Virus record (IMG/VR): IMGVR_UViG_3300020567_000066
Coordinates: 7,121-71,120 of that record
DNA: 64,000 nt
Strand: one strand, 5' to 3'
From: a virus
Lineage: Duplodnaviria > Caudoviricetes
Below the pieces are notes generated by a model, which was given only the letters and a program-made list of their open reading frames with translations, made no database searches and was not told where the DNA came from. Positions 16,763 to 64,000 of this stretch are shown here, piece after piece; position 1 is the first letter of the stretch; each line of letters opens with the position of its first letter. Position numbers and translations under genes: made by a program.

Positions 16763-16777
16763 TTGGAGGTATTAGAT

Positions 16778-17596: not shown

Positions 17597-17607
17597 CGGA
17601 GGATTTT

Positions 17608-21135: not shown

Positions 21136-21171
21136 GTTCATGTGTTTTAATTGATAGACAAGGAGAAAAAT

Positions 21172-26191: not shown

Positions 26192-26212
26192 ATGAAGAAT
26201 AGGAGGTGTTCT

Positions 26213-34053: not shown

Positions 34054-34092
34054 TACTAACTAAAAGAAAGGAATCTATATAGGAGGTAAGGA

Positions 34093-44238: not shown

Positions 44239-44253
44239 CAGGAGGAAAACAAT

Positions 44254-45309: not shown

Positions 45310-45318
45310 GGAAACAAC

Positions 45319-48123
45319 ATGATAGGAACAAGAACATATAAACATGTTATATCTTCAGAAGTTTACAACATAGCTGGTGCTGTTGGTATTGGTAATGTTT
45401 TAATTGAATGCAGTAAGTTGACTATGAAGAGAAAACCGATGTACAGTAAAGATGTGTTTACAAGTTTATACACTCATACAGATATAGAGATTGAAGGTGA
45501 GTGTCAAACAATTATGGGTTGGAATGATGATTATACTGGAGTTGACTCTGGCATTTTGCTAAAAGCAATATTGATGGGGACACACTTCAAAGAAGCAATA
45601 AGTTGGGAGAATAAAGTAATTGAAAAATCACAACAACAAATAGCACTATCGCAATACAATGTAGCAGATATTGATAAAATTACCAATCCATTCAATAGAA
45701 TTAAAATTCCAGAAACCACAGAAGCAAAACAATACTATCACAATAAGGAGTTTGAGAATATACCATTCTTAGAAAAGATGATATATGAGGTTATTAAAGA
45801 AAATGCTTCTGGTGGTGCGTATAGATTGTTTAATGTTCCTGTTTGTGTCTATTTTGGGAAAATTACTGATGAGAAAGAAGGCTTTGTGTTTGAAACTCTT
45901 GGTTTTCTTACACCTGTTGAAATACAAGTTTCTATAACATCGTCAGAGAACAATAAGCTTTTAATTCAATTTAAGATTGAGTTCTCATACAGAGAAAGAG
46001 CAAAAACACTGAGTAAATCATTGGACCCAAATAATAAGGATGTTTCAGATTATGTCTACAGATATACAGTTAGATATGATGTTAACTCTATGTGGACAAA
46101 AGCAGGCATTTACACAATTATTTACATCACAGTAAGACAATTGTTTAGGAACGCTGGAACTCTAACTGATTCAACTCTTGTTGGTGCTTCTCATTTTATA
46201 CCCAATCTTGGGCTTTATCTTGGGTATATTGAGTCTATAGAGACATTGCAACATGAAGATGGTATGGGATTTAAAGTAGTTGTAAGAATAAAGCATGAGA
46301 ACTTTGTTCTTTGTCATCCAATTGACAAAAGTGTTGCATATGTAAATGTAATTGAAAACTCTCAGTTTGTTCCTCCACAAGGATCATATGCCTTTGGTTC
46401 AGCAAGGTATAATGCCAAGATAATCACTCAAGGCATAGAACAGGCTGGAGCACACATATCCACCGTCCAAAATATCACAAACACAGCACTACAAACTTTC
46501 TTTGCAGATTATACAAAACCAGAAGAGTTGGTAAGAAAGACAATTTATGAAAGCTATCCATTAGCTTCTGCAATGGTGGAGTCACAAAAAGTTCATGATA
46601 TGATGAGAATTGAAAGAGCAGATGCAGTATTTTCTGGTGCTCCATCAATTACAACAAAGCTTATAAGATCACTGAAAATATCTGTAAAAGGATTACCAAA
46701 CTCACATCCTGCTGTTTTAGCAGCATATGCTGCAAATATCATAGACTACTACATGTTTCACTGGATAAGAATGTATCTTAAAGCAGTTAGCCCATTAATC
46801 AATGGAAATAATTTCTTCAACCTTATGTTTTATGTGTTTGGTAATTTCAACAGAGCCTTTGCCAATAATGATATATTTTTAGCTCATGAAATCAAAAGGA
46901 TGGGAAATGTTGGTAATGTGTTTCAACTTATAAAGACAATTGCTGATTTTGCTGAAAAGAATCCATACTTTACCCTTTGGATTGGTTCACCAGAAGTTAG
47001 AGCACTTGGTAGGAATATTGGTGATTTCCAGAAAAAGAAATACTTCCTTACATTTTTGAGACAAAACTTTTCTGGTCTTATTTTGAATTTAATAAATCAA
47101 GCAAAAGATAAATTTAAACAAGCAGAAGGAATACTTGGTAATATTTCTGGTGCTGCTCTTGGTTTAATTCAAAAGGTTATTGGCTGGATACAAAACAGTG
47201 CTGGTGAATTTAGCTGGTATATTCCAGATTATCTTTTCTCATCTCTGATGCAAAATTATTACAACATCAATGTAAAACATGTGGATGAAAATAGCTTCTT
47301 CAATTCTGGAATTACTTATAGACTATTTCTTGCAATGTATATGCTCAATGGTATCAAAGAAATAACTTATAGCACATCATACAATGTCAATGAGAATACC
47401 TATGAAATTGACTTTGCCTGTACATTTGATGATTGGGATAATGGTGCATTTTCCTACTATACTTCACCAATCCTATCACATTCATTGTTCTTCAATAATT
47501 GCTATCCATATTCTGCTATTCCTTATGCAAAGGATAATTATTATATATTCAGAACATCTGGTTTCAATGATAAATATCCTTTTGACATTGATGATACTTT
47601 GAAACATTTCTTAGGGCAAAACTTCAGTTGGCCGATCTATAGCAGCTCACTACTTATAACAACTCCAGTTGTTCCACATTATAATGTTTATGAAGTGGAT
47701 TCTGATGGTAAAATGCTAACTGGTGGATATGCATACACTGGAGGTGCTAATAACATATTCAATAGCTCAAAACAAAAATCACCACCTAGATTTCCAGGAT
47801 TCAACATAATCCTTGATCCAGATAAAAAGAAATATAGGGTTTATAAAGTATTTTCAGGTGATGGTAGCTTAATGCAATATGAAATCAATGTACAAGAAGA
47901 TTATAGTTTTTATGATCATCAAATTCCTTATAACTCTTTGCAGGAAATAGTTGACATTATTGGTCCTTGTTCATATACATTCACAACATTTGAAAATGGT
48001 CCTTATAATAAGTTAGCAAGATTTAGAGATTTCTATGATGAGAAACGTGAACAAACAGTTAGCGGAATGAATATACTTGTTTCTCCCATTGTCTCATTCT
48101 TAAAATATTACTCTGGAAAATAA
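45319..48123 (+). CDS. large tail protein (tape-measure/baseplate candidate)
   Basis: 934 aa; central helical A/G/L-rich stretch (NLINQAKDKFKQAEGILGNISGAALGLIQKVIGWIQ) flanked by beta-rich regions. Confidence 0.4.
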   Translation: MIGTRTYKHVISSEVYNIAGAVGIGNVLIECSKLTMKRKPMYSKDVFTSLYTHTDIEIEGECQTIMGWNDDYTGVDSGILLKAILMGTHFKEAISWENKVIEKSQQQIALSQYNVADIDKITNPFNRIKIPETTEAKQYYHNKEFENIPFLEKMIYEVIKENASGGAYRLFNVPVCVYFGKITDEKEGFVFETLGFLTPVEIQVSITSSENNKLLIQFKIEFSYRERAKTLSKSLDPNNKDVSDYVYRYTVRYDVNSMWTKAGIYTIIYITVRQLFRNAGTLTDSTLVGASHFIPNLGLYLGYIESIETLQHEDGMGFKVVVRIKHENFVLCHPIDKSVAYVNVIENSQFVPPQGSYAFGSARYNAKIITQGIEQAGAHISTVQNITNTALQTFFADYTKPEELVRKTIYESYPLASAMVESQKVHDMMRIERADAVFSGAPSITTKLIRSLKISVKGLPNSHPAVLAAYAANIIDYYMFHWIRMYLKAVSPLINGNNFFNLMFYVFGNFNRAFANNDIFLAHEIKRMGNVGNVFQLIKTIADFAEKNPYFTLWIGSPEVRALGRNIGDFQKKKYFLTFLRQNFSGLILNLINQAKDKFKQAEGILGNISGAALGLIQKVIGWIQNSAGEFSWYIPDYLFSSLMQNYYNINVKHVDENSFFNSGITYRLFLAMYMLNGIKEITYSTSYNVNENTYEIDFACTFDDWDNGAFSYYTSPILSHSLFFNNCYPYSAIPYAKDNYYIFRTSGFNDKYPFDIDDTLKHFLGQNFSWPIYSSSLLITTPVVPHYNVYEVDSDGKMLTGGYAYTGGANNIFNSSKQKSPPRFPGFNIILDPDKKKYRVYKVFSGDGSLMQYEINVQEDYSFYDHQIPYNSLQEIVDIIGPCSYTFTTFENGPYNKLARFRDFYDEKREQTVSGMNILVSPIVSFLKYYSGK

Positions 48124-48124
48124 T

Positions 48125-48817
48125 ATGGAAGAATTAAAACAATACATATATGAGACTTGTAGAACAATGGTGGAATATGCTCTAATTGACAGGGGCAAAA
48201 ACTATAATATTTACTACGCTCCTGTAAAGAATTACTTCATTGTTAATACTTTTGCTGGAAATGTAAAAATAACAAATGGAACAGTTACTGGGAAAATTGT
48301 TGTTCAGTCTTCAAATACTGGTTCTCAGTATCCTTTCATATTGCCTCTTGTCTTTAGTAATGGTGTTGAATATATGGAAGATGAATCATTTGACAATAAT
48401 ACAACAACTGTTGTCAGTGGTTCATATCAGAGCAATGCCAACATGTTTCCCAAACTACAAACTTCTAGCTTTAGACATTCATTCCTTGTGACAAGACCTC
48501 TTTCATCTTTTAGTTTTGAAGGATTCTTAATTGACTGGTATGCATTGGCAAGAGGAACAGATTTATTACTGCAAGAAAGAACTGAAACATTTTCTCTATC
48601 TCAAGCTAATCAGGATTTTATAGAAGAAGCCACAAGTGTTGCCTTTGACAAGATTATAAATGCTATGGAAATGAAACATAAAGCCATAATAGGACCACCA
48701 ATACTTACCTACATTATAAATCAGAACTATTATGATAAGTATAAACAGTTAGCAGCCAATTTTGATGAGTTCTTTAGGAGTCAATTTGGATATATGAATA
48801 CCTACAACATCCTATAA
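48125..48817 (+). CDS. putative tail protein
   Basis: 230-aa ORF in the tail operon. Confidence 0.5.
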   Translation: MEELKQYIYETCRTMVEYALIDRGKNYNIYYAPVKNYFIVNTFAGNVKITNGTVTGKIVVQSSNTGSQYPFILPLVFSNGVEYMEDESFDNNTTTVVSGSYQSNANMFPKLQTSSFRHSFLVTRPLSSFSFEGFLIDWYALARGTDLLLQERTETFSLSQANQDFIEEATSVAFDKIINAMEMKHKAIIGPPILTYIINQNYYDKYKQLAANFDEFFRSQFGYMNTYNIL

Positions 48818-48836
48818 TAATTTAGGAGATTGACAA

Positions 48837-50255
48837 ATGGCTATGGATATTAACCTGTTATTTGATCGTCTGAGAAAGATAAAGCTATCTATGAAGAAGT
48901 TTAATGACTTCTTCAACAGGAAAACTAACAATCCAGCAAGTAATACTGATTGGTTTAATCTTGGTGCAATTGCTAACAGTATTTCCACATCGTATGTAGA
49001 TAATTTTGAACTTATTGAAAATCTTGGCTCATTCATTAATAAGTTCAAAGATGACAACAATTCTCTTGTCTTTAATACTCTGGTTGATATTGCAAGAAAA
49101 ACTCTTATTGAAATGACATCTTCTGCTTTCAAGATTGTCAATCCAAATCTTGGTGAGGCATTAGAGTTTCTTGTTGATTATATGGTTACCAACTCTCCAA
49201 GCTATTATGTTAGTAGTGGATTCACAGATATAAATACACAATTTTTGTCACAAAACAACAAGGCAAATAATAATCTCAACATAAACGATGTTTTCATTAG
49301 AAGATATGTTGGTGACTCTGGTTATTGGTTCAGAAATGGACAAACAGTCCCTAGGCTTACTGTTTATCCAGAATCATTTGACTTTATCTGTACAAGACCA
49401 GGAACCAGGTCTACATCCGCAGAGTATCTGATAAAAGGCAATGCTTCTGTTCCCAAATATGATTGCAACTTTCCAACTGGTTCAGAGATAGACACTACTC
49501 TTTATCCTTCTGGTTCTGGTGTCTCTTTGACCTTAAATACCATTCTTCCCAATGACACAAACAGAAACATTATTAGAAATGCTAGTTTTGATAATTGGAC
49601 AAATGGATTACCCAATGATTGGGTTGTTGCTTCTGGTGGTGCAGATGTAGATTTTTCAATGGAGACTGGGACAAACAATGTCTATTGGGGTGATGTGTCG
49701 TTGAAACTCAATGCTAATGGTGGGACTGTTGTGTTCTACCAGGATATAACAAATGTTGTTGTTCCAAATCAACTATATCTTATTGGTTTCTTAGTAAGAA
49801 AAGATGCCAATGCTTCTGGATCAAGCACTGTCTCCTTTGATGTGGTCAATGAGAGTGATATGAGAATACAGGATAGTGGTGATCCTCCTCTTGAGGAAAT
49901 CTCTTATCAGAACATGAGAAATGATTTTGCCTTTGACTTTTATGGCAGAATCATTAGATTCCCAAGAATTGGGTTTAGAGTAGCAAGGGCAAGACTTATA
50001 TTCCAATCTAGAGCAGCGTTCAATATCTATTGTGATGGTGTCTTTCTTGTTCCTGTGCAACCACTTTACAACGGTGGACCTGCTTTTGCTCTTATCCAAA
50101 AGTCTTTACCACCCAAATTCAATGATAAGTTCTCTATCAATATTACCAATGAAACAAAAACATGGAATTGGTTCTTTGAAAGAGTGTTTAACTCTGTTTC
50201 AGATTATGGTATTTATTTACCAATACAAGGCAACACACTTATAGCTTATGACTAA
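48837..50255 (+). CDS. tail protein with a carbohydrate-binding-like (CBM4/9-type) domain
   Basis: NIIRNASFDNWTNGLPNDW...SLKL...FYQDI...YLIGFLVRK...YCDGVFL pattern. Confidence 0.5.
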   Translation: MAMDINLLFDRLRKIKLSMKKFNDFFNRKTNNPASNTDWFNLGAIANSISTSYVDNFELIENLGSFINKFKDDNNSLVFNTLVDIARKTLIEMTSSAFKIVNPNLGEALEFLVDYMVTNSPSYYVSSGFTDINTQFLSQNNKANNNLNINDVFIRRYVGDSGYWFRNGQTVPRLTVYPESFDFICTRPGTRSTSAEYLIKGNASVPKYDCNFPTGSEIDTTLYPSGSGVSLTLNTILPNDTNRNIIRNASFDNWTNGLPNDWVVASGGADVDFSMETGTNNVYWGDVSLKLNANGGTVVFYQDITNVVVPNQLYLIGFLVRKDANASGSSTVSFDVVNESDMRIQDSGDPPLEEISYQNMRNDFAFDFYGRIIRFPRIGFRVARARLIFQSRAAFNIYCDGVFLVPVQPLYNGGPAFALIQKSLPPKFNDKFSINITNETKTWNWFFERVFNSVSDYGIYLPIQGNTLIAYD

Positions 50256-50257
50256 TT

Positions 50258-50878
50258 ATGCCTAATTTTTCTGATGGTAATTCAATACCTGCTGCTCTTT
50301 ATGACATTATACCAAGATTGAGGACTAGACTATCAGAAACAACTGGTATCAGTCCTCATGCTATTTATTTGTCTGTTTATCCAGAAAGACTAAAGGCTCC
50401 AGAAACAACAGCATTCATAATAAATATTGATCAAATATCACCAATTGGTACAACATATACTGCTGGTGGTCCATATGGACAACTATATCTTCTAAGGGGT
50501 AATGTAACAGTCAGAACAGAGAAGGTTCTTGATGTCGTTGGTGGAGATATTTATGGTCTTTATGATATTGCCATTGGACACTATGAAATGGTTGAAAAAG
50601 TATTTGCCTCAATCCATTACTTTTGGCCTTTCATAAGAATGAGTTCCCCAAATGGTGACCTTAATGTTCCAATCACTGCATGTCCATTTCATGCTGAAAA
50701 GATTTCTGATACAGAAAGACCTGGAAAAACTGACAAGCTTTATCTCATCAATGCTATAAGTTTTTGGGTTCAGTATAACCCAAGAATGTTTGATCTGTTT
50801 GACCAAACCACACTCAATGCATTTCTAGAGAAGCCTGATGTTGTGATACATTGGGCAAAAGCAACTCTTCCTCTATAA
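50258..50878 (+). CDS. putative tail completion/structural protein
   Basis: 206-aa ORF in the tail operon. Confidence 0.45.
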   Translation: MPNFSDGNSIPAALYDIIPRLRTRLSETTGISPHAIYLSVYPERLKAPETTAFIINIDQISPIGTTYTAGGPYGQLYLLRGNVTVRTEKVLDVVGGDIYGLYDIAIGHYEMVEKVFASIHYFWPFIRMSSPNGDLNVPITACPFHAEKISDTERPGKTDKLYLINAISFWVQYNPRMFDLFDQTTLNAFLEKPDVVIHWAKATLPL

Positions 50879-50916
50879 TAATTTGAAGACATTTTAAACA
50901 AAGGAAGGGGAATCAT

Positions 50917-53900
50917 ATGATAACCATTTTTGGATTTCCTGTTATTAATATTGGACCCAATACACCATCAAATATGCATAATTGGGTTCTAACGAATAAA
51001 AACATTGGAAAGGTTATAAAAGATTTGCTTACAGACTCTGGTGGTCAACTTTTATCATATGTTACCAGTGGTCACCTTATAAGCAATACATTGTCTTTGT
51101 TTCCAGATATTGGTATAAATGAATTGTATTGGCCAACTGGTGCATCAAGATTTGGTTGTTGTTATCTATTGGTTCAGGAAAAGGTTGCTTCTGCTATATT
51201 TGATCTTTCAGATGTTGTTGACTTAGAAGAACGTGGTGATTCAGGTAGCTCTGAAGAAGATGACGAAGATAGTAATCCAGAAGGACAAAAGAAAATCAAG
51301 TGTCCATCTTTTACCTGTCCATTGTTTTCTAGCTATACAGAAAGTTGCAATAAGAAAAACAAGCAAAATAGAAGCTATTTCTCTGGTGAGAATGCTGTAA
51401 CTGCTTTCCCATTGTTGCAGAATCTAAACAACATTTCTCTTCCCTTGGTTAGAAGGTTGAAGCCAGTTATCATTGGTTTTATGATGAATGATAAAGTAGA
51501 AACTATGCTTTATGGTGGTTTTGTGAAAGTTTACATGTATCCACTTCTCTATATACCAATTGGACAGTTTGAACAAATGCCATTGCCAGACTTTGAAGGT
51601 TGCGGCATCCTTGTTTGTGTTGATCAAAGATTCTTGTGGAATTATATGATTGTGAAGGATGAGTATATAGAAAGGGATTCTGAAAAGGATTATTTCAACT
51701 GGTATAACGTTGTCAACAATGTCCTAAGTGATCACCTTCATGATTGGCAATATTTACAGGATTATGCATCAACAATTTATGATAGGGTTTGGTGTGATTA
51801 TGTTAACAACAAATCTGAGCAAGACTATGAGATGACATTTACCAACTCAATAGAAGGATCAATATCATTCTTTGACTCATTTGGTAAGAGTAAAGAAGAG
51901 GAAAATAGTTCTTCTGTTAGTGTTCCATCAATTCCTGGAAGTAATAATCTTGGAGGTTCTGGTGGAATAAGCTATAATCAAGACAATAATCAGAATATCA
52001 GCTTTGAAGATAATAATAGCCAATGGTCTGAGTATGTTGATAGTAGGAATAGAGAAGAAGACAATACAGAAGAAAGTGATGATGATTATCAGTGTTTTTA
52101 TGATGATAGAGACTTTCTTGGACCATCATTCAATATCAAGTCTTTTGGTGCAAACTACTCTCTTGCACAATTTCTTTCCATTGTTGAACAATCTCTTCTA
52201 AAGAGACTTGTATTCAACTTTAACTGGAGAATATCATTCAGGAATGGAATAACAGCAAGAACATTGTGGCTTGAATCAATTCTCACTTATGTTCCAACAG
52301 TAATATATCAGAATGATAAAAGAATTGCTGAGCTAACTGTAGACAAGAGTAAACATAATTATAAAGAGCTTCCTCTGTTTCAAGGCGGTATTGCAATTTA
52401 TGAGAATAGGTTCAAATACTATTCCAATGAGATGATTCAATCTATAAAGGACAAGTCTTTACACTTAGACCCAGGTTCTTCTATTGTTCTGCCAGAAAAA
52501 ATAACCATTTATGGTGATGAATACTTTACTTATGGTGACAACTTAAGAAAGGATATTCCAGGTGGTTGGGATAATCTTGTTCCATTTGGTGGTGTTCACT
52601 ATACTCAAGACATTATTGATTACAGAAGTGGAACACTCAAGTTTCCAGATGATTTGCCAATGGTGAATGAGTATGGCCAGTTTTCTATACCAACAGTAAA
52701 AAGATTTATATCTGGACCTAAAGGAAAACTAGAACTTAGACTTTACACAACAGCTACCAAAAGAATACACATCAAAAATGGATCAAAAAGAGAATTAAAT
52801 AAGAATAAAATCGAGTGCTTCTGCAAAAATGTTGTAAGGAATGCCCTTTATTGGTTTATTGTACCATCAACATTTCAATTTGCAGGATATTATGAATGGC
52901 CATTCTCTGGATTTGAGGATTATATTACCATTGATACAAAGACAGGAATTACAAGTGTAATTACCAAGTCTCATCAACTATTGTTTCCTGGAAGTAGTAG
53001 CTCTGGATTTGGAATCATATATGGTGGTGAATCTTCTCCAACAGAGGAATTGAAGATAAGACATGCCTTATTGAGTAATTTTCATAAAGACACACCAGAA
53101 GAACCACCTGCAAAGAATGCTATCATTGTTGGAAGGAATAAAAACACTGATCTAGGAACCAACAATAAGCTTCCTCATGAATCTGATGTATATTGGCACA
53201 AGTTATTACCACATGAACATGCAGAAAACCTATTTGCTATAGGAAATTATGGTGTTGATCATGGTTTTACAGGATTACCAGATGAATCACCAGACAAATA
53301 CATAGCTTTTATTCCAGTGTCAAATAAGGAAGATTGTACTGTTGAGTGGTGGTATTCAGTTATGAAGGCAACAAAGTATGATCCTTCACCACATCTTGGA
53401 TTCTATAAGTTTGATCAATCACTGTGTGCTAGAGGTTGGGATGATGTTCCCAATAGAAACCCATCTGCCAATCAGGGAACAATATCACTGTTGAATGATA
53501 ACACATTATATGATGAGCTTGGTTTTTATCAACCTTTCAAATGCTATGGTTTTCATCCCACACTTACTAAAGCTTGGATTGATGTTCCTATTGTGAAAGA
53601 TGGATTTGGTACTCATAAGCTGTTAGATAGTCTATTCCACCTATATGGTAGTGGAGAAAGTCCTACATCTAATGAGATTATTGTAGTAGAGCTTGTAAAT
53701 AGACCAGAAGCATTCAATTTACCACTACCAGTGTTTAGAAAGTTTAATATGATGAACTCACAAACAGCTCTTCTAACTGCTGTTCTTGATAACAACACTA
53801 TTTTCTCTCAACCTTTGTTCAACACTCTGAAGTTTGTTCTTGATAATAAGTTTTCTGACCTAAGTGTAAAGATGGAAAACCTAATACTTTCTCTCAAAGG

Positions 53901-56900
53901 AGATGAAGATAATCTTGGACCCAGAAAGTTCTATGCCAATAAAGAATATAAAGGATTCTATGATCTTGATGAAGAAACTCACAGTTTTGATGATGGTGGT
54001 GGAAATCCAGACTCTAATCCTTGTAGTGTTGAATCTTATTACCAGGAGTATTGTAATGAAACTCCATCTTTACCATGCAATCAAATGGCATTAATGTATA
54101 AGCTCTATGCCAAAGAAACAGAAGACTTGCATAATTCTTGTGATTGTACTCTCTTAACATCTTGTGCTATTATTCTTGCTTTAGACTTTAGTGACAGCAA
54201 TTCTGGTCAATGTGTATATAAGACAGCTCACAATGGTTCAAGTTTCCTTGGTTCTCCTAATCCTTGTGGTGAAGAGAATGGAAACTATACAGCGGAAATG
54301 AGAGTAGTTGGAGACAACATTGTTGTATCTGTGTATAGAGGTGTTCAATATCTTGGTCAGCTAACCTATACTGGTGACATCACATTAGGAACAATACCTT
54401 TATCTGGAACATTACTAGACAGTAATTGCAATACTTCAGAATGGGTATTGCAAAAACATAGATGTTTATCTCCCAATAGCAACAATTATGTTCCATGTGA
54501 TGGATGTGCACAACAACAATCCAGATGGTGCTTGGAAATTGAAGAGGGCAATCCATCTTATGTGGCTGATAATGAAGGAGAGAACAATGATTGCTTCAAT
54601 GCTTATGAAATGTATGCAGTGGATTTTCAACCAACTTCTAATGTTCTATGTGCAGATGCAAATAACATTGAACACGGAGTTAATATTCATAACTACTGTG
54701 ATTTTTCAATACTTCAATGTAATACTGCCACAACTGGAAAATCTGTTGTAATCTATAGAGTTCCAGAGACATGTGTATGGACAAGTAGATTCTTATACAG
54801 AGATGAAAATAAGAATAAGGAATACTTATATGGTGTTGTTTATATCTGCAACTGTCCTCACTACTTCATTGCTTTTGGTAGTAATGAGACATTTCTCCTT
54901 GCTCTTGTAAGAGGAGGAGCAAATAAGAACACTGCTCTTAATTTCAACATTGTTGCTTTCTGGTTTGGAGAGCACAATGGTGCACAGAGTTTTTCTCTTG
55001 AGTTGGTTCAAGTATTTGATGAGGCTTATAGTATGATTTTGCCTCCTTTTGTTGAATTGACTGCTATCAAAGGAATCAAAATTAATGACAATTCCTATGA
55101 TCCAACTTCACCATACAAGTTTGCTGATCTTGTTGATGAAGTAGAAGTTACTCTTACAGGAGAAGATGGAATCTCAGTATTCTCAGAAACAATTATGCAT
55201 TATCGACCTTCAATTTTCCCAATGCCTGTATTCATGACCTATCAGATTAGTGATGTATTTACCAAAGGAACTCAGGCTTATTTGAGTATGGAGTATGGTA
55301 AGAAGATTCCTTGCCCCAATGATCCATGTCCTGATCGTGGTAATGATCCTTGTGATCCAAGAATACTAATTCCTTGTGAAACAAAGCCAGAGGATTATGA
55401 TGGTAATCCCTGTCTTCCAAATGATACAAGAAGCTCTCCTTATCGTACTAAAGATACTGGTTTTGCTTATTTCCCCAATATCTATGCTAAGGCAGATTGG
55501 ATTTATGATGTTCTTTGGACACCATGTGAATTGATGGAATACTATGGTGTTGATTTATTCAACTGTAACAGCAATGAAAGAGGTTGCTGTGTTTACAGGA
55601 GAACATATTTACCTCTTCTGGAAGCAGAGTCTAATCATGAAATTAGAGGGGTTATAAGCTATAGAAGAGGATTTTACAATGTTGATGATGAAACATATAG
55701 GAGATTAACAGGACATTCATTCAAAGATACTCTTTTTTATAAGGTGATGCATGAAGTATTTGATATTGATCTCAACCAAAGCAACTTAAAGCCTGCTGTA
55801 TTCAACCATGACAAAGTATTTGCTATATCTGAGTCTGTTTATCCTTGTTATAATAACGATTCTCTTACATCAAATCAAGTTGGTGAGTATTATCTTGTCA
55901 GCAACTCTAAGAAGATTGATGTATATGCTGAAACACCAATTGGAAGAACTATTGGACCTGATTATGAAGGTCCAGAAGGGAATAGACAAATTGATTTTCA
56001 AATGACTAATTTTGATAATCCATTCTTTATTAATCAAGTTAATTGTCCTCCTGGTGACATTGATTTTTACAATATACCAGCATATCCCTCTGCAATTGTA
56101 AAGAAGTGTAATGATGGAACATTGAAACTATTTATGGTAAAATATCCAGTTTATTCTTCTGATATTGGTGGCAATTACAATGTGTTTCCTAAGAGTGATT
56201 TTAGTTTTACAGGAAGTGGAGAAGAGTTGAAGGGAATTATGTCTTGTGTTTGTTCTAATACATTCATTGTTACTGACTTCTCTGCTGGATGGAATGGAGA
56301 TAGAAGTGAGTGTATTAGTGTGTTGGATGGAAACAATAACCTAAATCTTGGTTGGACTTTATCTGGCAATAGTTATGAAGTGTCTGAAAAGATACAAATT
56401 ATAAAATCTTTAGTTTCTAGAGGGCATTATGTTGATTGGACTCCATTCCAATATGATGATTTATCACAGATGATTAGCTCTTTAGACTTTATTACAGCTC
56501 AAGATTTGAGAGGTCCAGCAGTTAATGTGGTGAGAAAGATGTTGGATATTTATGGAAGAAATATACGAATAATATTGACTTTCCTGAGAAGAGTATTCAA
56601 TACAGCATTTTTACCAGAAATTACTGACTGTGCCTTTGTTCCAGAGAACAGTTTGCCAGAGTCTATAGGCTTTTCTGGTGTTGATGTTAATACTCTTGCT
56701 CGTCTAATGGTGAGTGGCAATTGTAACCCATTCTGTTCTAAGGGAACATCAGATATGAATGTTTTCTGTAGTGATCCAACCTCAGAAGATGTGGTAATGA
56801 TCAATGCTGCTGTAAGATTAGCAACATATTTCCACATTTATATGCCAGTAAACAGATATGAGACTTATCCATCCTTTGATATTGTCAGTTATGGACTAAT

Positions 56901-56970
56901 GAGTCATGGAAGTCTTAGAGTCAAGATTCACAATGATTGGCCTTTGAGAGAGCAAGGAGGACAACAGTAA
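50917..56970 (+). CDS. giant Cys-rich tail/baseplate or fibre protein
   Basis: 2017 aa; acidic S/N linkers; many Cys in the C-terminal half (PCPNDPCPDRGNDPCDP...NPCLPND). Confidence 0.55.
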   Translation: MITIFGFPVINIGPNTPSNMHNWVLTNKNIGKVIKDLLTDSGGQLLSYVTSGHLISNTLSLFPDIGINELYWPTGASRFGCCYLLVQEKVASAIFDLSDVVDLEERGDSGSSEEDDEDSNPEGQKKIKCPSFTCPLFSSYTESCNKKNKQNRSYFSGENAVTAFPLLQNLNNISLPLVRRLKPVIIGFMMNDKVETMLYGGFVKVYMYPLLYIPIGQFEQMPLPDFEGCGILVCVDQRFLWNYMIVKDEYIERDSEKDYFNWYNVVNNVLSDHLHDWQYLQDYASTIYDRVWCDYVNNKSEQDYEMTFTNSIEGSISFFDSFGKSKEEENSSSVSVPSIPGSNNLGGSGGISYNQDNNQNISFEDNNSQWSEYVDSRNREEDNTEESDDDYQCFYDDRDFLGPSFNIKSFGANYSLAQFLSIVEQSLLKRLVFNFNWRISFRNGITARTLWLESILTYVPTVIYQNDKRIAELTVDKSKHNYKELPLFQGGIAIYENRFKYYSNEMIQSIKDKSLHLDPGSSIVLPEKITIYGDEYFTYGDNLRKDIPGGWDNLVPFGGVHYTQDIIDYRSGTLKFPDDLPMVNEYGQFSIPTVKRFISGPKGKLELRLYTTATKRIHIKNGSKRELNKNKIECFCKNVVRNALYWFIVPSTFQFAGYYEWPFSGFEDYITIDTKTGITSVITKSHQLLFPGSSSSGFGIIYGGESSPTEELKIRHALLSNFHKDTPEEPPAKNAIIVGRNKNTDLGTNNKLPHESDVYWHKLLPHEHAENLFAIGNYGVDHGFTGLPDESPDKYIAFIPVSNKEDCTVEWWYSVMKATKYDPSPHLGFYKFDQSLCARGWDDVPNRNPSANQGTISLLNDNTLYDELGFYQPFKCYGFHPTLTKAWIDVPIVKDGFGTHKLLDSLFHLYGSGESPTSNEIIVVELVNRPEAFNLPLPVFRKFNMMNSQTALLTAVLDNNTIFSQPLFNTLKFVLDNKFSDLSVKMENLILSLKGDEDNLGPRKFYANKEYKGFYDLDEETHSFDDGGGNPDSNPCSVESYYQEYCNETPSLPCNQMALMYKLYAKETEDLHNSCDCTLLTSCAIILALDFSDSNSGQCVYKTAHNGSSFLGSPNPCGEENGNYTAEMRVVGDNIVVSVYRGVQYLGQLTYTGDITLGTIPLSGTLLDSNCNTSEWVLQKHRCLSPNSNNYVPCDGCAQQQSRWCLEIEEGNPSYVADNEGENNDCFNAYEMYAVDFQPTSNVLCADANNIEHGVNIHNYCDFSILQCNTATTGKSVVIYRVPETCVWTSRFLYRDENKNKEYLYGVVYICNCPHYFIAFGSNETFLLALVRGGANKNTALNFNIVAFWFGEHNGAQSFSLELVQVFDEAYSMILPPFVELTAIKGIKINDNSYDPTSPYKFADLVDEVEVTLTGEDGISVFSETIMHYRPSIFPMPVFMTYQISDVFTKGTQAYLSMEYGKKIPCPNDPCPDRGNDPCDPRILIPCETKPEDYDGNPCLPNDTRSSPYRTKDTGFAYFPNIYAKADWIYDVLWTPCELMEYYGVDLFNCNSNERGCCVYRRTYLPLLEAESNHEIRGVISYRRGFYNVDDETYRRLTGHSFKDTLFYKVMHEVFDIDLNQSNLKPAVFNHDKVFAISESVYPCYNNDSLTSNQVGEYYLVSNSKKIDVYAETPIGRTIGPDYEGPEGNRQIDFQMTNFDNPFFINQVNCPPGDIDFYNIPAYPSAIVKKCNDGTLKLFMVKYPVYSSDIGGNYNVFPKSDFSFTGSGEELKGIMSCVCSNTFIVTDFSAGWNGDRSECISVLDGNNNLNLGWTLSGNSYEVSEKIQIIKSLVSRGHYVDWTPFQYDDLSQMISSLDFITAQDLRGPAVNVVRKMLDIYGRNIRIILTFLRRVFNTAFLPEITDCAFVPENSLPESIGFSGVDVNTLARLMVSGNCNPFCSKGTSDMNVFCSDPTSEDVVMINAAVRLATYFHIYMPVNRYETYPSFDIVSYGLMSHGSLRVKIHNDWPLREQGGQQ

Positions 56971-58361
56971 TGCCTTTTCAGGAGAAGCACAAACTATTGG
57001 ATGGTGATGTACACTATGATACACAGGAATATACCATATTGGAATATGGTGCTATTGTTATTGGATTGAGTGATTCCTTATGGGGAACTCTTCCTCCTCC
57101 AGGAATTAGTCTTTATCCTAATGCCTTGTATTATGAGGAGAAATCAAAATCTGTTATCTGGCAACCATATTTGATAAGATGGGGTACTGAGCAATACAAG
57201 TTATATGATGCCAGGAGTATATTTGTTGGTTCAATTGTGTATGATAACCAATTGGGAAAGATTCATCTTGAAAATGATCAGGATGAACCAGGACCACTAA
57301 AGTATTATGGTACAAGTGTTGATGGTGAAAAGGGTTGGTGGGATATAGAAATAGAGACTGGACTAGAGCCTGAGAACCACAATCTTTCTTCTAATCAATG
57401 GCATATTGATGTCAATGGTTCATTTCCTCCTCAAACAGGAAGAGCAATAACATCTTTTGGTAGTTTATGGACTTATGTTCAAGGTGATTATGATAGTGTT
57501 GGCTGTCCTTCTTATCTAGGTTTCTCTACAATCAATAATCAGGTAGAGTTTTTAGAATTGAGAGGAGAGAAACATATAGAGAAGAACAATACTTGTCAAT
57601 TCCAATTGGTTGGTGATCCTTATCAAGTGAAAGCATATACCAATATCTTTGGTTTTGATTGTAATGCCCTTATGTATTATGGCACACTAAAAGGTAGAGA
57701 TGATGGTTGGCATAGTTTACCAATGTATTTGTGTGATGATGGATCAGTAGAGAACTGGTGTAATACAAGTGTTGATAGTGGACAACCAAGTGTTTATAAC
57801 AATCTTAATTATCCAGAGAATCCTGTCTATGTAGACAACCAGGGAGTAGAAGATCATTGTTTGAATCCTAATGACAACATATATAACCTTTGTGATACTA
57901 TCAAGGGATGGGGATTTGGTGAACTTGGTGCTGATCCTGGTTGTGATATGGTTCTAGATTGTCCTTATGTTGATTACAAGGGACATATTCTAGAAACTAC
58001 ACTGGAATCTATTAGAAGAAAGTATGATAGACTTGTCTTATTTGCTGATAGAATTGGCTTTGATCTCATACCAGCAGAAACTATGGATGTTCCATTTGGT
58101 AGAGTTCGTTATCAGATTTCTGGTAGATTGAACTCTTTAGCTTCATTATTGGTTAAAGCAAATCTTATATATCAAGAAGTAGTTGTTCAACCTTCTCCTT
58201 CTGGATATTTAGTAGCTCCAGGACAATTTTATGATTATGCAAGACCAATAGTATTTTCTCAGACTATGTATGAACCATTTGTTGTTATACACCATGTAAA
58301 ATATAATAAAGCCAGTGTAGAGAATGTACGAATAAAAGACTTTGGAATATCGAAATATTGA
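56970..58361 (+). CDS. tail fibre-like protein
   Basis: TAATG-coupled start with SD AAGGAGG; module LENDQDEPGPLKYYGTSVDGEKGW. Confidence 0.55.
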   Translation: MPFQEKHKLLDGDVHYDTQEYTILEYGAIVIGLSDSLWGTLPPPGISLYPNALYYEEKSKSVIWQPYLIRWGTEQYKLYDARSIFVGSIVYDNQLGKIHLENDQDEPGPLKYYGTSVDGEKGWWDIEIETGLEPENHNLSSNQWHIDVNGSFPPQTGRAITSFGSLWTYVQGDYDSVGCPSYLGFSTINNQVEFLELRGEKHIEKNNTCQFQLVGDPYQVKAYTNIFGFDCNALMYYGTLKGRDDGWHSLPMYLCDDGSVENWCNTSVDSGQPSVYNNLNYPENPVYVDNQGVEDHCLNPNDNIYNLCDTIKGWGFGELGADPGCDMVLDCPYVDYKGHILETTLESIRRKYDRLVLFADRIGFDLIPAETMDVPFGRVRYQISGRLNSLASLLVKANLIYQEVVVQPSPSGYLVAPGQFYDYARPIVFSQTMYEPFVVIHHVKYNKASVENVRIKDFGISKY

Positions 58362-58369
58362 GGTGAGCT

Positions 58370-60757
58370 ATGCCACAAGCAGCACCAAATAAACTGTTCA
58401 AAGACAATGACATAGACTTTGGTAATCTTATATTTCGTTCTATTCATAGCGATACCTTTACCAAAAGTAGTGCTTTTAGTGTTTTATCTGTTATTAGAAG
58501 TAGAGAATCACCATATGCTTCTAAGAAAGGATTTGTATTCTATACAAGATACCAGCATGTTAATAATATCCTTGTATCAGTGGGAGAAAGAGTAGTAGCA
58601 GGACAACAGATTGCTTCTATTGCTCCTTATGCAGCTAGTGAACCACATCTTCACTTTGTTATTTCAGACTCTGATGGACCATACAATTGGCAGGGACAAG
58701 AGTTACCAATTGGTGGTGTTGCTTTGTTTGTTGATGATTGGTTTGGGTTTCCTACAGATGGATCAAGAGTTGGTAAACCTGCTCATAGAAATGCTAACTT
58801 TCCTGAAGAGATTATTTCCTTTATTAGACAAAGATTCTACTTACCAGTAGAAGGTTCTGATTGGAAGATTATACTTTCTTCTCCATTTCACACTCTTTAT
58901 GACTATTACGCAATTGACATAGAAAGGGCAAGCACCACTTCTCTTGGTGAACCAGTTTATGTGGCTTTTGGAGATGATAGAATTGAGAGTATTGTTGACT
59001 CTATAACACCAAACTGGGAAGCCTACAGTGTTCTTGTAAGGCACAGAATTAAACCAGAAGATGAAAAGGATGACGATAAATACTACTTCTGGGGTCCTGG
59101 AGGTTTTGTTGGTGTTATTCAACCAGATGCCAGTGAGTTATCTAATCTACCTTCAGATCAAGCTTTTGTATTGTCTCAATCTGCTGCTACTGGTAATAAA
59201 AGCAACTTGACACCAGAAGACTCAGAATATCCTATCACACCCTATTGCATATATACACAAAGCAACATTTATGGTAAAGGATTATTCAATAGAAAAATTG
59301 GTTGGTATCAACCAAGATTTGCTCTATTCAATGGAGAGATAGTACCAGATGAAGATAGAAGAGAGGAATCTGTAGAGAATCTTGGTTTACTGGAGGACAA
59401 AGTTTCTGGTTCTATTGTTGTGAGGCAAATTCCTTTACATGAATCCTGGTTCCAATTTACAGCAAAATATGGGTTGAAGTATCCAATTATTGTTGCTACT
59501 CTTGAGAATGATGTTTTACTTCCCAAACCAGGACAAATCTACTGTACTGATCCTAATGGTATAAAAGGATGGCACAATCCACAAGATTTCTTCAATGTTT
59601 ATGTACATCCAATTATTCCTACTGGATTGGGAGAAGAGTGTAGCAATGATTTAGAAGCAGAAGCTCCATGTTACAACATGCATACAGATGTTCAAGAGAA
59701 TCCAGACTCTCCAGTACCAGCAATTGTAGCAGGATTGGGAAACAAGTGGACTTATATTGGTCCAACAAAGCAATATCAATTGTTTAGTAATGAATCTGAG
59801 TGGGTTAATATACAGACTTATGGTAGTTTGACTACAGAAGAAAAGGATGGAAAAGTAACTCTTGTTAATGATGAAGATTCTGATGATACATTTTATGGTG
59901 GGAGAGAGAATAAACCCAAATGGGTAGAAATCCATGATTTGACTGGAGAAGAAGAGTCAGAAGAAGAAGGTGAAAAAAGTAGTGGTGAATCAGGAGGTGA
60001 AGGAGGGAGTAATCCAGACAATATAGGTACAACTCCAGGACAGAATCCTAGTCAAAAGTATAAACCTGGATTCAATGAGTTTGGTAATACAGTATGCAAA
60101 CCTGTTGTCAATGTAAAAGACAGAGGAAAGTTTAGAGTTGTTGCTTATCGTTATTATCCTATTGGTTTCTTTGGTATTTCACCACCATACATATACTATA
60201 ATGGTTGCACTGCTAAAGGAAGAGTATATGCAGATTATGATTTCCTATCAGAGTTTATTAGTACAGACTTTCAAGCATACAATGCAGAGCTAGATTGTGT
60301 AAGAAGCTCAGATTACTATAGCTATTGCAAGATAGCCAAGAGGAATTGGTTAGCTTCTTATCCACAATCATTTTCTATAAAAGCTCTAGTAAAAGGTGCT
60401 TCCTATAATCTGGTTCCACAGAATTATAACAATAGAGCAGTAATTGGGCACATAGTAACACTTGGTAACAGAACATGCAAAGACCTAACAATTGGTTCTG
60501 GATACTTGTGTTTTAAGAGAGTTTCTGGTTCTTGTAATATCAATGTTATATTGACAATGAAAGCATCTAATGGAAAGATTGTTGTATATGAATTACAGCC
60601 AGAACCTATTAGTAATCCTCAGTATGATTATCAGCTTATTATTAGACCAAAGATGTTTCACTTTATGGAAATATCTGTTGTACCAGAAGGTTGTGATGTA
60701 AGAGTAGAAGGAAAGTTCTTCATATATACATTGACAAGAGAGGAATTAGGGCCATGA
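58370..60757 (+). CDS. tail protein with an N-terminal, circularly permuted M23 peptidase-like domain
   Basis: YQHVNNILVSVGERVVAGQQIA...PHLHF precedes PFHTLYDYYAID...GEPVYVA; fibre modules follow. Confidence 0.6.
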   Translation: MPQAAPNKLFKDNDIDFGNLIFRSIHSDTFTKSSAFSVLSVIRSRESPYASKKGFVFYTRYQHVNNILVSVGERVVAGQQIASIAPYAASEPHLHFVISDSDGPYNWQGQELPIGGVALFVDDWFGFPTDGSRVGKPAHRNANFPEEIISFIRQRFYLPVEGSDWKIILSSPFHTLYDYYAIDIERASTTSLGEPVYVAFGDDRIESIVDSITPNWEAYSVLVRHRIKPEDEKDDDKYYFWGPGGFVGVIQPDASELSNLPSDQAFVLSQSAATGNKSNLTPEDSEYPITPYCIYTQSNIYGKGLFNRKIGWYQPRFALFNGEIVPDEDRREESVENLGLLEDKVSGSIVVRQIPLHESWFQFTAKYGLKYPIIVATLENDVLLPKPGQIYCTDPNGIKGWHNPQDFFNVYVHPIIPTGLGEECSNDLEAEAPCYNMHTDVQENPDSPVPAIVAGLGNKWTYIGPTKQYQLFSNESEWVNIQTYGSLTTEEKDGKVTLVNDEDSDDTFYGGRENKPKWVEIHDLTGEEESEEEGEKSSGESGGEGGSNPDNIGTTPGQNPSQKYKPGFNEFGNTVCKPVVNVKDRGKFRVVAYRYYPIGFFGISPPYIYYNGCTAKGRVYADYDFLSEFISTDFQAYNAELDCVRSSDYYSYCKIAKRNWLASYPQSFSIKALVKGASYNLVPQNYNNRAVIGHIVTLGNRTCKDLTIGSGYLCFKRVSGSCNINVILTMKASNGKIVVYELQPEPISNPQYDYQLIIRPKMFHFMEISVVPEGCDVRVEGKFFIYTLTREELGP

Positions 60758-63336
60758 CAGTACCACAAAACAATAGATACCAGCAAACACCAAGAAGTAT
60801 GGTAAGAGCTGGTATTAGTACATATTTCCCTGATGATGCAAAACCATATGAACTCTTATTTGCAGAGGATGAAGGATGTTTGTATATCTATGTTCCAAAG
60901 TATGGATTTCAGAAGATAGGGTGTTTTGATATACAAGCTGCACTAGAGGAACAGAGAGAAAGACCAGTTCCTTCTTCACAACCATCATCTCAACCATCTT
61001 CACAACCAGAACCTGGTTCTCAACCACCAGAACAACCACCACCTGAATCTTATTGTGCAGTAATGGAAGATGGTACTGGAAGAATTGATGTTGATTGTAA
61101 GCTTACTGGATATATTAGGTTTGGCAATATAAATGATGCTACAGCATTTGAATTTGTTATCTGTTTGACTTATAACCCTGATTTTGGTTATTGGTATGGT
61201 CAGTATGATGTTAGCAGATTAATGAGTGGTTATATAGTTCCTGGATGCAATAATTGGCAATTCTATTTTTATACAGATGGAAGAATGAGAATTGTGTTTG
61301 GTAATAATTCTAGTATTGTTAAGAACAACTTTTATAGCTTTGGTACAAGAGAATTGTGGACTTATAATTTTCGTTATTTCTCTGATGAGCTTTATAGTGC
61401 TAATTTTCTTAGCAATTGTATGGTAAGAGAAAAAGCATTTTTTGATAATGGAGTTTTTCAGGATTGGGGCATAGACGCAAGAATTGAAAATACAACAACT
61501 GGTTGTGATGATTATGAATCTTCAGAAGATTATTATAATTGTGATGCTATACCAGAGGTTCATATTAATGAGATTAATTTTCGTTGTAAAATACTTGATC
61601 AATATGGTATGCCAATTTGTAATCTTGTTCCTGTTGATGCCACTTCTCCTGATGGAGTGAAGAGTTTTACTGGCAAACTATCAACACATCTTCTCTTTTA
61701 TCCCTATTGGACATATCAACATTACTGCTATGATACAAACACATCAAATACAAGATTTTATGAGACATATTCTATATATACACAGAACATTGAGTGTGTC
61801 AATAACTATCTGAATGAGTTGTATGCAAGGAAACAATTGTCTGTAGAAGACTATAGATTTGATCTTTGTAACCCTATTGTTCTTTATTGGAGAGAAGATT
61901 ATGGATATTGGATAAGTAAACCATTTTATAGGTTTTCTATTCTTTCCAATAGAAAGCAAGATATTTATGTCATAGTTACTGGTATTTTTGTTATGAGGAG
62001 AAATCTTCAGGTTTATATAATACCAATCAATTGGTCTATTATTCCAGACAATCAGAGTATTAAGAATGATCCTTTTCTTCCTCTTGATAATTCCTGTGAT
62101 ATTTTGGATAAGCAATTCATAGATGATTATATAACTAGGCTAATAAGATATTATGCATATCGTTACACAGATCATTTTGTAGTCAATAATTCCAATCTAG
62201 TTATTGACATGAATATGTATAGAAGAGTTGGTCCAGAGTATCCAATTGGATATTACAATCATTTTGGTTTTATAGTTGATCCTTGTAATCTTTCTACACC
62301 AAATATACCTCATGATATAAGCCACAACATACCTCATGATTTACCAGATGTAATTCCATTTGATTTTCTTCCTCATGATATTGATCTGTATTACAGTCAT
62401 CATAATATACAACCATGTGAAATACTTCTAAGTGTTTATATTACTAAAACAGTCGATCAGGAGGGCACATATAAACATTCAAGAGACAATGTAGTTATGA
62501 GTTGGGACTCTAGTACAAAGGAATGGGTGTATAGTGATTACACACAGAAAGCATATAATACACAGTGCAACTATTATGAGATAAGAGCAAAAGGTACTTA
62601 TAATAATGGAGTAGTTGATATAACCATCAAGATTACATTTGATGGAAGAACTATAGAACAAACATTTTCCAAGATGCTTAATGAAGCATTCTTTATTGTC
62701 TGGGATTTCACATATCCAGATTTGTTTCCTAGTGATTGTAATACAGGAAATTATTTCTTAGTTGCTGGAAGAATAACACTGAGTGATCAAGGAAAATGCA
62801 TATATATTGATCCTACTTCATCAAATCAGGGTGGTTCATCAGGTAATAATCCTTGTAAATCTGGATGTAGAGATGAGATGGATGAAGATGAAGACTATAA
62901 CACTGATCCATCTAGAGTATGTGCAAGAATGACTGATGGTACTGACAGATATGATGGTGATTGTGCAGTAATGGCCAAATATAATGTCTGGTATATAGAT
63001 GGAACAAGAGGAGAACCATATAAGAGGAAGTTGTTGTGGAATCCAACAGCAAGAACTTGGGCAAGAGACTTTGCAATTCAAGAGATTCCTTGTGGTTCAT
63101 CATCTGGTGGTTTGATTGCTTCTAGTAAAAGAATGATCTTCTCCACTTCTGGTGTTATAAGGATTCGATGGAAGAGTGATTTGGTCACTACTCATACACC
63201 ACAAAAAACTGTTGGTAGTGGAAACACATGGAGATATTACTACTTTATTGAAGTTCCAATAGGGTGTTTATCTGGAAGAAATACTTCAGGATTATCGGCA
63301 AGATATATGGAAGTGCTTGTATATAACAATGTGTAA
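60754..63336 (+). CDS. receptor-binding/tail fibre protein with internal repeats
   Basis: P/S/Q linker (PSSQPSSQPSSQPEPGSQPPEQPPP); repeated CA.M.DGT.R.D.DC domain at both ends; IPHD repeats. Confidence 0.55.
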   Translation: MTVPQNNRYQQTPRSMVRAGISTYFPDDAKPYELLFAEDEGCLYIYVPKYGFQKIGCFDIQAALEEQRERPVPSSQPSSQPSSQPEPGSQPPEQPPPESYCAVMEDGTGRIDVDCKLTGYIRFGNINDATAFEFVICLTYNPDFGYWYGQYDVSRLMSGYIVPGCNNWQFYFYTDGRMRIVFGNNSSIVKNNFYSFGTRELWTYNFRYFSDELYSANFLSNCMVREKAFFDNGVFQDWGIDARIENTTTGCDDYESSEDYYNCDAIPEVHINEINFRCKILDQYGMPICNLVPVDATSPDGVKSFTGKLSTHLLFYPYWTYQHYCYDTNTSNTRFYETYSIYTQNIECVNNYLNELYARKQLSVEDYRFDLCNPIVLYWREDYGYWISKPFYRFSILSNRKQDIYVIVTGIFVMRRNLQVYIIPINWSIIPDNQSIKNDPFLPLDNSCDILDKQFIDDYITRLIRYYAYRYTDHFVVNNSNLVIDMNMYRRVGPEYPIGYYNHFGFIVDPCNLSTPNIPHDISHNIPHDLPDVIPFDFLPHDIDLYYSHHNIQPCEILLSVYITKTVDQEGTYKHSRDNVVMSWDSSTKEWVYSDYTQKAYNTQCNYYEIRAKGTYNNGVVDITIKITFDGRTIEQTFSKMLNEAFFIVWDFTYPDLFPSDCNTGNYFLVAGRITLSDQGKCIYIDPTSSNQGGSSGNNPCKSGCRDEMDEDEDYNTDPSRVCARMTDGTDRYDGDCAVMAKYNVWYIDGTRGEPYKRKLLWNPTARTWARDFAIQEIPCGSSSGGLIASSKRMIFSTSGVIRIRWKSDLVTTHTPQKTVGSGNTWRYYYFIEVPIGCLSGRNTSGLSARYMEVLVYNNV

Positions 63337-63343
63337 TAATGAA

Positions 63344-63433
63344 ATGAATTGGATACATGATGAAACAGAAGCAGAGATTGATGAGATAGAAGAGATTGTT
63401 GACACTCTTCTACATGATTGGGATTTTGATTAA
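63344..63433 (+). CDS. possible 29-aa acidic peptide
   Basis: MNWIHDETEAEIDEIEEIVDTLLHDWDFD; no strong SD. Confidence 0.25.
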   Translation: MNWIHDETEAEIDEIEEIVDTLLHDWDFD

Positions 63434-63484
63434 TGATTTATGGTGTATCGTGAAAGGTGTATGAAGCATCGTGAGAGGTATATG

Positions 63485-63520
63485 AAAAAGGACGACGCTA
63501 CACACCACACATAGCGTCGT
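63485..63520 (-). terminator. intrinsic terminator for minus-strand transcription
   Basis: 9-bp stem ACGACGCTA/TAGCGTCGT (63492-63520) followed on the minus strand by CCTTTTT. Confidence 0.6.
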
Positions 63521-63594
63521 TGTCTATACTCCGCCAGCCTATGCTGGACTGCTGCTCTGACATCCTTCTCAGGCAGCTGTTCCCAGGCAGCTGT

Positions 63595-63867
63595 TCATCG
63601 ACTGCCCTCACCAGTGCCCTCACCAGGATCATCCTTCGCCAACAGGCTCAGCAACTCCCACGGCTCTCCGAAATGAGCCTTGCCTGAGCTGTCCAGGACT
63701 TTCCACAGCCCGTTTCGCTGGTTATATGTAAGCAGCCCCCTATAGCCATCAGTACCCCAGACATGCCAGCTGCTGCTGTCTGAACGCTCGACAGTCAAGC
63801 CGAGCAACGCTGCCATCTGGATTACTTTATTGTGCCTCTCTTGCCTCGTCTTACCAGTCAGACGCAT
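63595..63867 (-). CDS. hypothetical protein (GC-rich segment)
   Basis: 90-aa ORF, SD GGAGG, high GC. Confidence 0.65.
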   Translation of the reverse strand: MRLTGKTRQERHNKVIQMAALLGLTVERSDSSSWHVWGTDGYRGLLTYNQRNGLWKVLDSSGKAHFGEPWELLSLLAKDDPGEGTGEGSR

Positions 63868-63947
63868 AGTAGTGCCTCCGGATTAGGTTAAAAGGAAGGG
63901 AGGCCATCCATGGCCAATATGTTACTGCTACTGCCGTCATTCAGTCG

Positions 63948-64000
63948 TCAAATTGTTGGTTTCTGCAGCGCAATCAACTGCTGGTACTTCAGGTTGTTAC
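63948..64000 (-). CDS. 3' end of a gene entering from beyond the window
   Basis: ...NNLKYQQLIALQKPTI-stop. Confidence 0.3.
   Translation of the reverse strand, partial: NNLKYQQLIALQKPTI

Follow-up and report, generated by a model that had tools for sequence, protein, structure and literature searches.

Extreme CpG depletion that survives codon correction in the genome of a tailed phage

When 4969 genomes of natural phages were surveyed, the overall (median) CpG ratio was about 1.00, and a ratio of 0.82 was already termed low (PMC11409064). The ratio of observed to expected CpG (O/E) generally falls with GC content, and thermophilic bacteria are depleted of CpG beyond the level predicted from their GC content; phages tend to resemble their hosts in CpG content, and a higher bendability of DNA has been proposed as the advantage of CpG depletion (PMC11282364). 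A precedent for a mutational decay of the dinucleotide is provided by the CpG methyltransferase-bearing bacterium Mycoplasma penetrans (PMC11282364). Here, we analysed the CpG content of a tailed phage (Duplodnaviria; Caudoviricetes) represented by the IMG/VR record IMGVR_UViG_3300020567_000066, a genome of 71,120 bp with an estimated completeness of about 99% (CheckV) and a GC content of 34.8%. The analysed stretch of 64,000 bp, referred to as the window, comprises bases 7121–71120 of the record, and all positions are those of the window unless stated otherwise. The whole genome contains 432 CpGs against 2147 expected (O/E 0.20), that is, about 80% of the CpGs are lost, and more than 90% in the tail genes. 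Since the ratio in the survey was about 1.00 overall and 0.82 was already low (PMC11409064), this phage lies far in the tail of the phage distribution.

The depletion was first noticed by eye in the region 53041–58080, which consists of the last two thirds of a long open reading frame (ORF) and most of the next one, both belonging to the tail module:

42718–63336, + strand: tail module, including a tail protein of 795 aa with an M23-peptidase domain at 58370–60757
50917–56970, + strand: virion/tail-module ORF of 2017 aa, 15 CpGs against 182 expected (O/E 0.08)
56937–58361, + strand: ORF of 474 aa (463 aa from 56970 in the strain contigs), CpG O/E 0.07, no family match
52813–54292: CG-free run of 1480 bp, containing the first flagged stretch
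56702–58106: CG-free run of 1405 bp, containing the second flagged stretch

The first-pass annotation had found no CG in 53041–54240 and in 57001–58080, where it expected about 30 per kb, and it had described GC dinucleotides as common. Counting bore out each of these observations: both stretches are free of CG (0 against 37.4 expected from base composition, and 0 against 33.3, respectively), the expectation amounts to 31 per kb, and the whole region contains 8 CGs against 157 expected (O/E 0.051) and 116 GpCs against 157 (0.74). The window as a whole contains 389 CpGs against 1941 expected (O/E 0.20), with ratios of 0.85, 1.31, and 1.26 for GpC, TpG, and CpA, respectively, and longer CG-free runs occur elsewhere, at 14635–17128 (2494 bp) and 12554–14341 (1788 bp). 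Since a CG-free run of 1200 bp has a probability of about 0.04 at the rate of the tail module (2.6 CG per kb), compared with about 6e-17 under base composition, the flagged stretches are not separate features, and the real feature is the genome-wide depletion.

As a control for codon usage, synonymous codons were shuffled 300 times among all genes, keeping the protein sequences and the overall codon usage. At the codon junctions, 99 CpGs were observed against 775 ± 21 in the shuffles (minimum 714), giving an O/E of 0.128 (z about −32), while GpC at the same junction positions reached 0.81–0.88 of expectation. The choice of codon depended on the base that follows it: among pyrimidine-ending codons the share of those ending in C was 2.7% before G, compared with 38% before A, 17% before C, and 30% before T (odds ratio 0.06). 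The NCG codons made up 1–2% of their four-fold families, and arginine was written as AGA or AGG in 822 of 940 cases. These results showed that CpG is removed at the DNA level by a context-dependent choice of codons and words. The avoidance of CpG is thus extreme and survives codon correction, the junction O/E of 0.13 being far from the value near 1 that the first-pass annotation had named as its refutation. The depletion was confirmed as real and not a codon artefact, and it represents an extreme instance of a compositional bias that is already known.

All modules except the accessory island were depleted, with junction O/E values between 0.00 and 0.21, and the depletion was graded between them:

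14156–19022, + strand: most purged block, right of the divergent control region, 0 junction CpGs against 49.5 (O/E 0.00), holding the CG-free run 14635–17128
genes left of the divergent control region: junction O/E 0.08
tail module: junction O/E 0.09
head module: junction O/E 0.15
replication genes: junction O/E 0.17
nucleotide-metabolism genes: junction O/E 0.21
6294–7926: GC-rich island, junction O/E 0.87

Intergenic DNA was depleted, too (48 CpGs against 128 expected). In the tail module, the overall CpG O/E was 0.089 and the junction O/E 0.093, and values of 0.07–0.09 were likewise obtained in ten strains from other samples; the CpG purge is maintained across strains worldwide.

The first-pass annotation had proposed pressure from CG-targeting restriction as one possible cause. 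All 16 NCGN words were depleted 3–11 fold (O/E 0.09–0.33), and the CG palindromes showed no further depletion given the dinucleotide and trinucleotide content (CCGG 1.73, CGCG 1.21, GCGC 1.04, TCGA 0.79, and ACGT 0.75). Since the palindromes carry no extra loss, the CpG loss is not caused by restriction at specific sites, and the persistence of the 432 CGs, 97 of them in a single island of 1.7 kb, also speaks against this proposal, which found no support in the form given. Palindromes without CG were purged from the genome: GATATC was absent (24.8 expected), GAATTC was found twice (18.5 expected), and AGATCT once (about 8 expected). In the whole genome, AAATTT occurred 10 times where about 23 were expected, and GTAC, TTAA, and GATC were present at 0.58–0.65 of the Markov expectation.

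The persistence of CG in islands, also claimed from the first inspection, was clear in the counts, as segments that total 5.1 kb, or 8% of the window, account for 147 of its 389 CGs. These are the segments 6230–7930 (97 CGs), 63337–64000 at the right end (23), 1050–1325 (10), and the origin region (17), while the tRNA-Arg gene contains just 1 CG. The features with normal or above-average CpG content and the two tRNA genes are as follows:

6230–7930, − strand: accessory island (50–53% GC) with two ORFans (6294–6986 and 7153–7926) around tRNA-Ile(UAU), CpG O/E about 1.0
7077–7150, − strand: tRNA-Ile, anticodon UAU, reading AUA (610 of 1802 Ile codons)
9470–9545, − strand: tRNA-Arg, anticodon UCU, reading AGA (623 of 996 Arg codons), which replaces CGN without containing CG
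2560–4470, − strand: leucine-rich repeat (LRR)/TIGR02996-like protein, CpG O/E 0.30, deleted in X20 and replaced by 432 other letters in X10
19999–21135, + strand: D12-class N6-adenine DNA methyltransferase, CpG O/E 0.37
33643–35247: cement protein and major head protein
63337–64000: GC-rich right end (45–56% GC), including an ORF of 90 aa (63595–63867, − strand)

No homologues of the island ORFs were found, except for one strain variant of 95% identity. The first of them diverges by about 5% between strains, compared with 0.5% in the flanks, the second is swapped for another sequence in run X10, and 3 of the 21 listed variants of the island are at CpG, where 10% of the island positions are in CpG. 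The D12 methyltransferase gene is missing from strain L116. The suggestion that CG density dates the acquisition of genes was thus upheld in one respect, namely that the CpG-normal or CpG-richer genes (the island ORFs, the LRR-like gene, and the D12 gene) are strain-variable accessory genes. It failed in another, since the core cement (O/E 0.45) and major head protein (0.26) genes also exceed the average, and CpG density is therefore not a clean clock. In the annotation of this genome, it can serve in practice to mark genes that were gained recently.

The explanation that we favour, tentatively and with somewhat less than even confidence, is an adaptation of the phage to a thermophilic bacterial host that would itself be CpG-poor and whose dinucleotide signature the phage would mirror. 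CpG as such would be selected against in the DNA of the phage lineage, across the whole core genome. In the sequence, a codon ending in C is hardly ever set before a codon starting with G, and the NCG codons are left nearly unused. Arginine is written as AGA or AGG, and the phage encodes a tRNA-Arg(UCU) and a tRNA-Ile(UAU) of its own. The pressure would be weak and quantitative rather than all-or-none, with recently gained accessory genes still CpG-normal. The host would be a low-GC, CpG-poor thermophilic bacterium in which the same debated force may deplete CpG as in the phage, and a candidate for this force is selection acting on DNA mechanics at high temperature. That the host is bacterial is indicated by the sigma-70-type factor, the DnaE-type polymerase, and the M23 peptidase encoded by the phage, and by its Shine–Dalgarno motifs, as GGAGG-type ribosome sites were found at 36 of 70 crudely called gene starts, where the background is 10%. 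DNA of the tail module was detected in 20 runs of 16 studies, most of them labelled as hot springs or microbial mat (labels only). A few runs carried non-thermal labels (landfill, drinking water, marine, and freshwater), and one, with an organism label, contained the phage at about 30x depth; true habitat breadth, enrichment cultures, or carry-over may lie behind these labels.

Strain contigs from other samples, ten covering 40258–60878 and ten covering parts of 14962–35801, all 99.3–99.8% identical to the window, provided 521 single-nucleotide polymorphisms (SNPs). The minor allele was taken as derived, and the null was obtained by placing the same change types randomly within the same coding-effect class. 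In the tail module, 20 SNPs create CpG (null 23.7 ± 4.4) and 7 destroy it (null 2.5 ± 1.5, P = 0.01), while in the replication/head region the corresponding numbers are 10 (null 13.1) and 4 (null 3.9). In the pooled set, 30 gains (null 36.8) are opposed to 11 losses (binomial P = 0.004), and the losses are 1.7 times the null of 6.4 (P = 0.06). Since gains exceed losses and a hypermutability of CpG sites is not clearly seen, weak selection is favoured over the decay of methylated cytosine, and the pattern is most simply explained by a CpG loss that is held by weak selection, where new CpGs arise nearly at random and are removed later. A genome out of mutational equilibrium is a possible source of the same pattern.

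Several observations weigh against selection of this kind and against a CpG-poor thermophilic host. The polarity of the SNPs was taken from minor alleles, 29 of the 41 SNPs that change a CpG occur in a single strain, and sequence errors, where contigs have low coverage, would count as gains; among the SNPs present in at least two strains, the 9 gains and 3 losses do not differ significantly. Relatives of the large terminase (TerL) are rare, only ten being found among 5.8 billion proteins, and the contigs whose TerL is 31–47% identical have the order DnaE, trypsin-like protease, YqaJ, TerL in common with the phage. These contigs have GC contents of 42–48% and CpG O/E values of 0.68, 0.82, and 0.95, and the phage and a relative co-occur in DRR082460, SRR27730049, and JGI 3300044959 (contigs L003, L005, and L006 with strains L104, L115, and L100). 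Since the relatives in the same samples retain CpG, the purge is specific to the present lineage and hot-spring temperature alone is not sufficient to produce it. With an IVYWREL value of 0.40, the proteome does not appear strongly thermophilic, which suggests moderate rather than extreme thermophily. The nearest cellular ThyX sequences (35–41% identity, which does not identify a host) and the proteins resembling the LRR protein belong to GC-rich phyla with normal CpG, namely Planctomycetota, Gemmatimonadota, and Myxococcota, and those ThyX contigs have GC contents of 38–73% (50% or more in all but one) and CpG O/E values of 0.85–1.87; the ThyX scan of genomes was partly circular, because planctomycete sequences were present in the query alignment. 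Finally, the two phage-borne tRNAs read the very A-ending codons that stand in for CG-containing or rare codons, and phage tRNAs for AUA and AGA are expected where these codons are poorly read by the host, as is the case in GC-richer hosts.

Some of these observations lend weight to an explanation in which the purge belongs to the phage only: the host would be CpG-normal, and the phage would evade a host factor that reads CG, which could be a nuclease, a defence system, or the combined action of many restriction systems with CG in their sites. This seems unlikely, if deserving of attention, since it accommodates a purge limited to one lineage while relatives in the same samples keep their CpG, it is compatible with the flux of SNPs as far as this reflects selection, and a host richer in GC is hinted at by the two tRNAs and by the weak affinities of the genes. 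A defence arms race is also visible in the purged GATATC and GAATTC sites, the two DNA methyltransferases, and the AcrIII-1-like ring nuclease. However, a cutter would still have targets in the 432 remaining CGs, the 1.7-kb island with its 97 CGs is tolerated, the depletion is graded between the modules and not all-or-none, and the CG palindromes are not depleted beyond the other words. Moreover, we know of no enzyme that restricts plain unmethylated CG. In its most specific form, this explanation would hold that the phage of a GC-richer, CpG-normal bacterium purges CpG against an undescribed host factor that reads plain CG in DNA as it comes in or is replicated, with tRNA-Ile(UAU) and tRNA-Arg(UCU) paying for the A-ending codons, which we consider rather doubtful.

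Deamination of 5-methylcytosine, another cause proposed by the first-pass annotation, would require a CG-specific C5-methyltransferase of the host (M.SssI/M.MpeI type) and heat-driven deamination that turns CpG into TpG and CpA. The excess of TpG and CpA (about 2290) indeed covers the CpG deficit (about 1715), but it does not discriminate between the explanations, because selection predicts the same excess. Deamination is also favoured by the CpG sites of the tail module, which are over-variable (7 losses against 2.5). Still, the pooled losses do not clearly exceed the null and those of the replication/head region are at it, while mutational equilibrium needs as many gains as losses and far more variable CpG sites than were found. 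The accessory island, with its O/E of 1.0, has no visible excess of variants at CpG. In addition, a six-frame search of the phage for a C5-methyltransferase (PF00145) gave no match at E ≤ 1, where the same search found the family in control genomes. Thermophiles generally avoid 5-methylcytosine. Deamination thus found no support in the form proposed, and such a decay driven by the host is improbable. A mere consequence of codon usage, of the amino acids encoded, or of the low GC content, without any pressure on CpG, can hardly account for the data, although A/T-ending codons and AGR arginine codons are usual in AT-rich genomes and CpG O/E generally falls with GC content, since this artefact is excluded by the synonymous shuffling, by GpC at the same junctions, and by the dependence of C-ending codons on the next base.

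Returning to the favoured adaptation to a CpG-poor thermophilic host, the searches for this host gave little. A 23.6-kb contig of the phage (L105; JAWADQ010000014.1) is binned in the low-GC hot-spring metagenome-assembled genome GCA_038896215.1, labelled Candidatus Nitrosocaldaceae archaeon. An archaeal host drawn from this label was rejected as probably a binning error, given the sigma-70-type factor, DnaE, and M23 peptidase; the binning shows that organisms with a k-mer signature similar to that of the phage share its habitat. The portal had no relative among viral contigs and the LRR protein had no match among genome contigs, while TerL and DnaE, compared with 50,697 phage records, reached only 22–28% identity, to phages of many hosts, and the DNA of the flagged region had no match in the same records. 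The phage DNA gave tRNA-like matches only in five planctomycete/Gemmatimonas genomes, and the search of window positions 44001–64000 against 401 Planctomycetota genomes resulted in a single 35-bp match of 89% identity outside a repeat array, which was dismissed as chance.

The other recognised genes of the phage include a YqaJ exonuclease, a dCTP deaminase, ThyX, a ribonucleotide reductase, the sigma-70-type factor, and the AcrIII-1-like protein (ring nuclease), as well as the following:

10487–12196: primase-helicase
21151–23829: DnaE-type polymerase
29093–30523, − strand: large terminase (TerL)
39841–41370, − strand: portal

The second phage methyltransferase, an N6/N4 DNA methyltransferase (genome positions 5701–6588), adjoins ThyX (the pair lying at genome positions 5701–7327, locus L008), and the same pair is present on an unrelated 53.5-kb contig (L009) of 44% GC. 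As that contig has a CpG O/E of 0.97, the enzyme is not tied to the CpG loss. For the ORF of 2017 aa, searches of Pfam, PHROGs, PDB sequences, and the Atlas yielded no match to any family, and nonsynonymous strain variants are abundant in it. A scan for promoters and terminators was uninformative (102 against 84 ± 9). In strain L115, an ORF of 61 aa (8088–8273; window 25791–26212) has a weak Cas12f1-like TNB (TnpB zinc-ribbon) match, and other strains differ there.

The strains (L100–L119, from at least 16 studies) diverge by about 0.3–0.4% at synonymous sites. In the tail module 42718–60757 (L100–L109), the ratio of nonsynonymous to synonymous polymorphism (pN/pS) was 1.9–3.0 in all pairwise comparisons (pS about 0.003, pN about 0.008), and 48%, 30%, and 22% of the SNPs fell on codon positions 1, 2, and 3, respectively, with 29 E>K and 22 D>N changes against 3 K>E and 8 N>D; in the replication/head region, pN/pS was about 1. 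The pattern resembles that of diversifying selection on the virion and tail proteins. An APOBEC- or DddA-like deaminase was considered, since G>A changes are enriched in GA context (TGA 29 against 13.7), and it was rejected because no asymmetry of transitions is seen at third positions (16 against 21); the purine/pyrimidine transition asymmetry is located at first codon positions, as E>K and D>N.

The CpG depletion of prokaryotes and viruses has no agreed cause, and the present phage offers a clean natural contrast, with an O/E of 0.2 against near-normal syntenic relatives from the same samples, to which the CpG-normal accessory genes inside the purged genome add another. The at least 16 public studies with strains of 99.3–99.8% identity are material for population-genetic tests. 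If the phage copies the signature of its host, this would support the idea that temperature and DNA mechanics drive the depletion, and if it answers to a CG-reading factor, this would, if true, be a new defence principle.

Among the known systems, the avoidance of restriction sites in phages (Rusinov et al., 2018, PMC6286503) resembles the present case in that selection removes short words, and GATATC, GAATTC, and AGATCT are purged here, too. In contrast to that system, every NCGN word is affected whether palindromic or not, CG palindromes show no excess loss, and hundreds of sites are left. Methylation-driven decay, known from vertebrates and from Mycoplasma penetrans (M.MpeI) and Spiroplasma (M.SssI), shares the low CpG and the high TpG and CpA with the phage, which differs in having no C5-methyltransferase and in strain SNPs showing neither strong CpG hypermutability nor balanced gain and loss. 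The under-representation of CpG in thermophilic and low-GC prokaryotes (Forni et al., 2024, PMC11282364, and the Mol Ecol 2024 paper cited there) shares with it the genome-wide, context-independent deficit, the excess of TpG and CpA, the hot-spring setting, and the lack of a bond to restriction–modification sites. Unlike in that system, the O/E of 0.20 (0.09 in the tail genes) is much lower than the median of phages (about 1.0), and the co-occurring relatives are not depleted.

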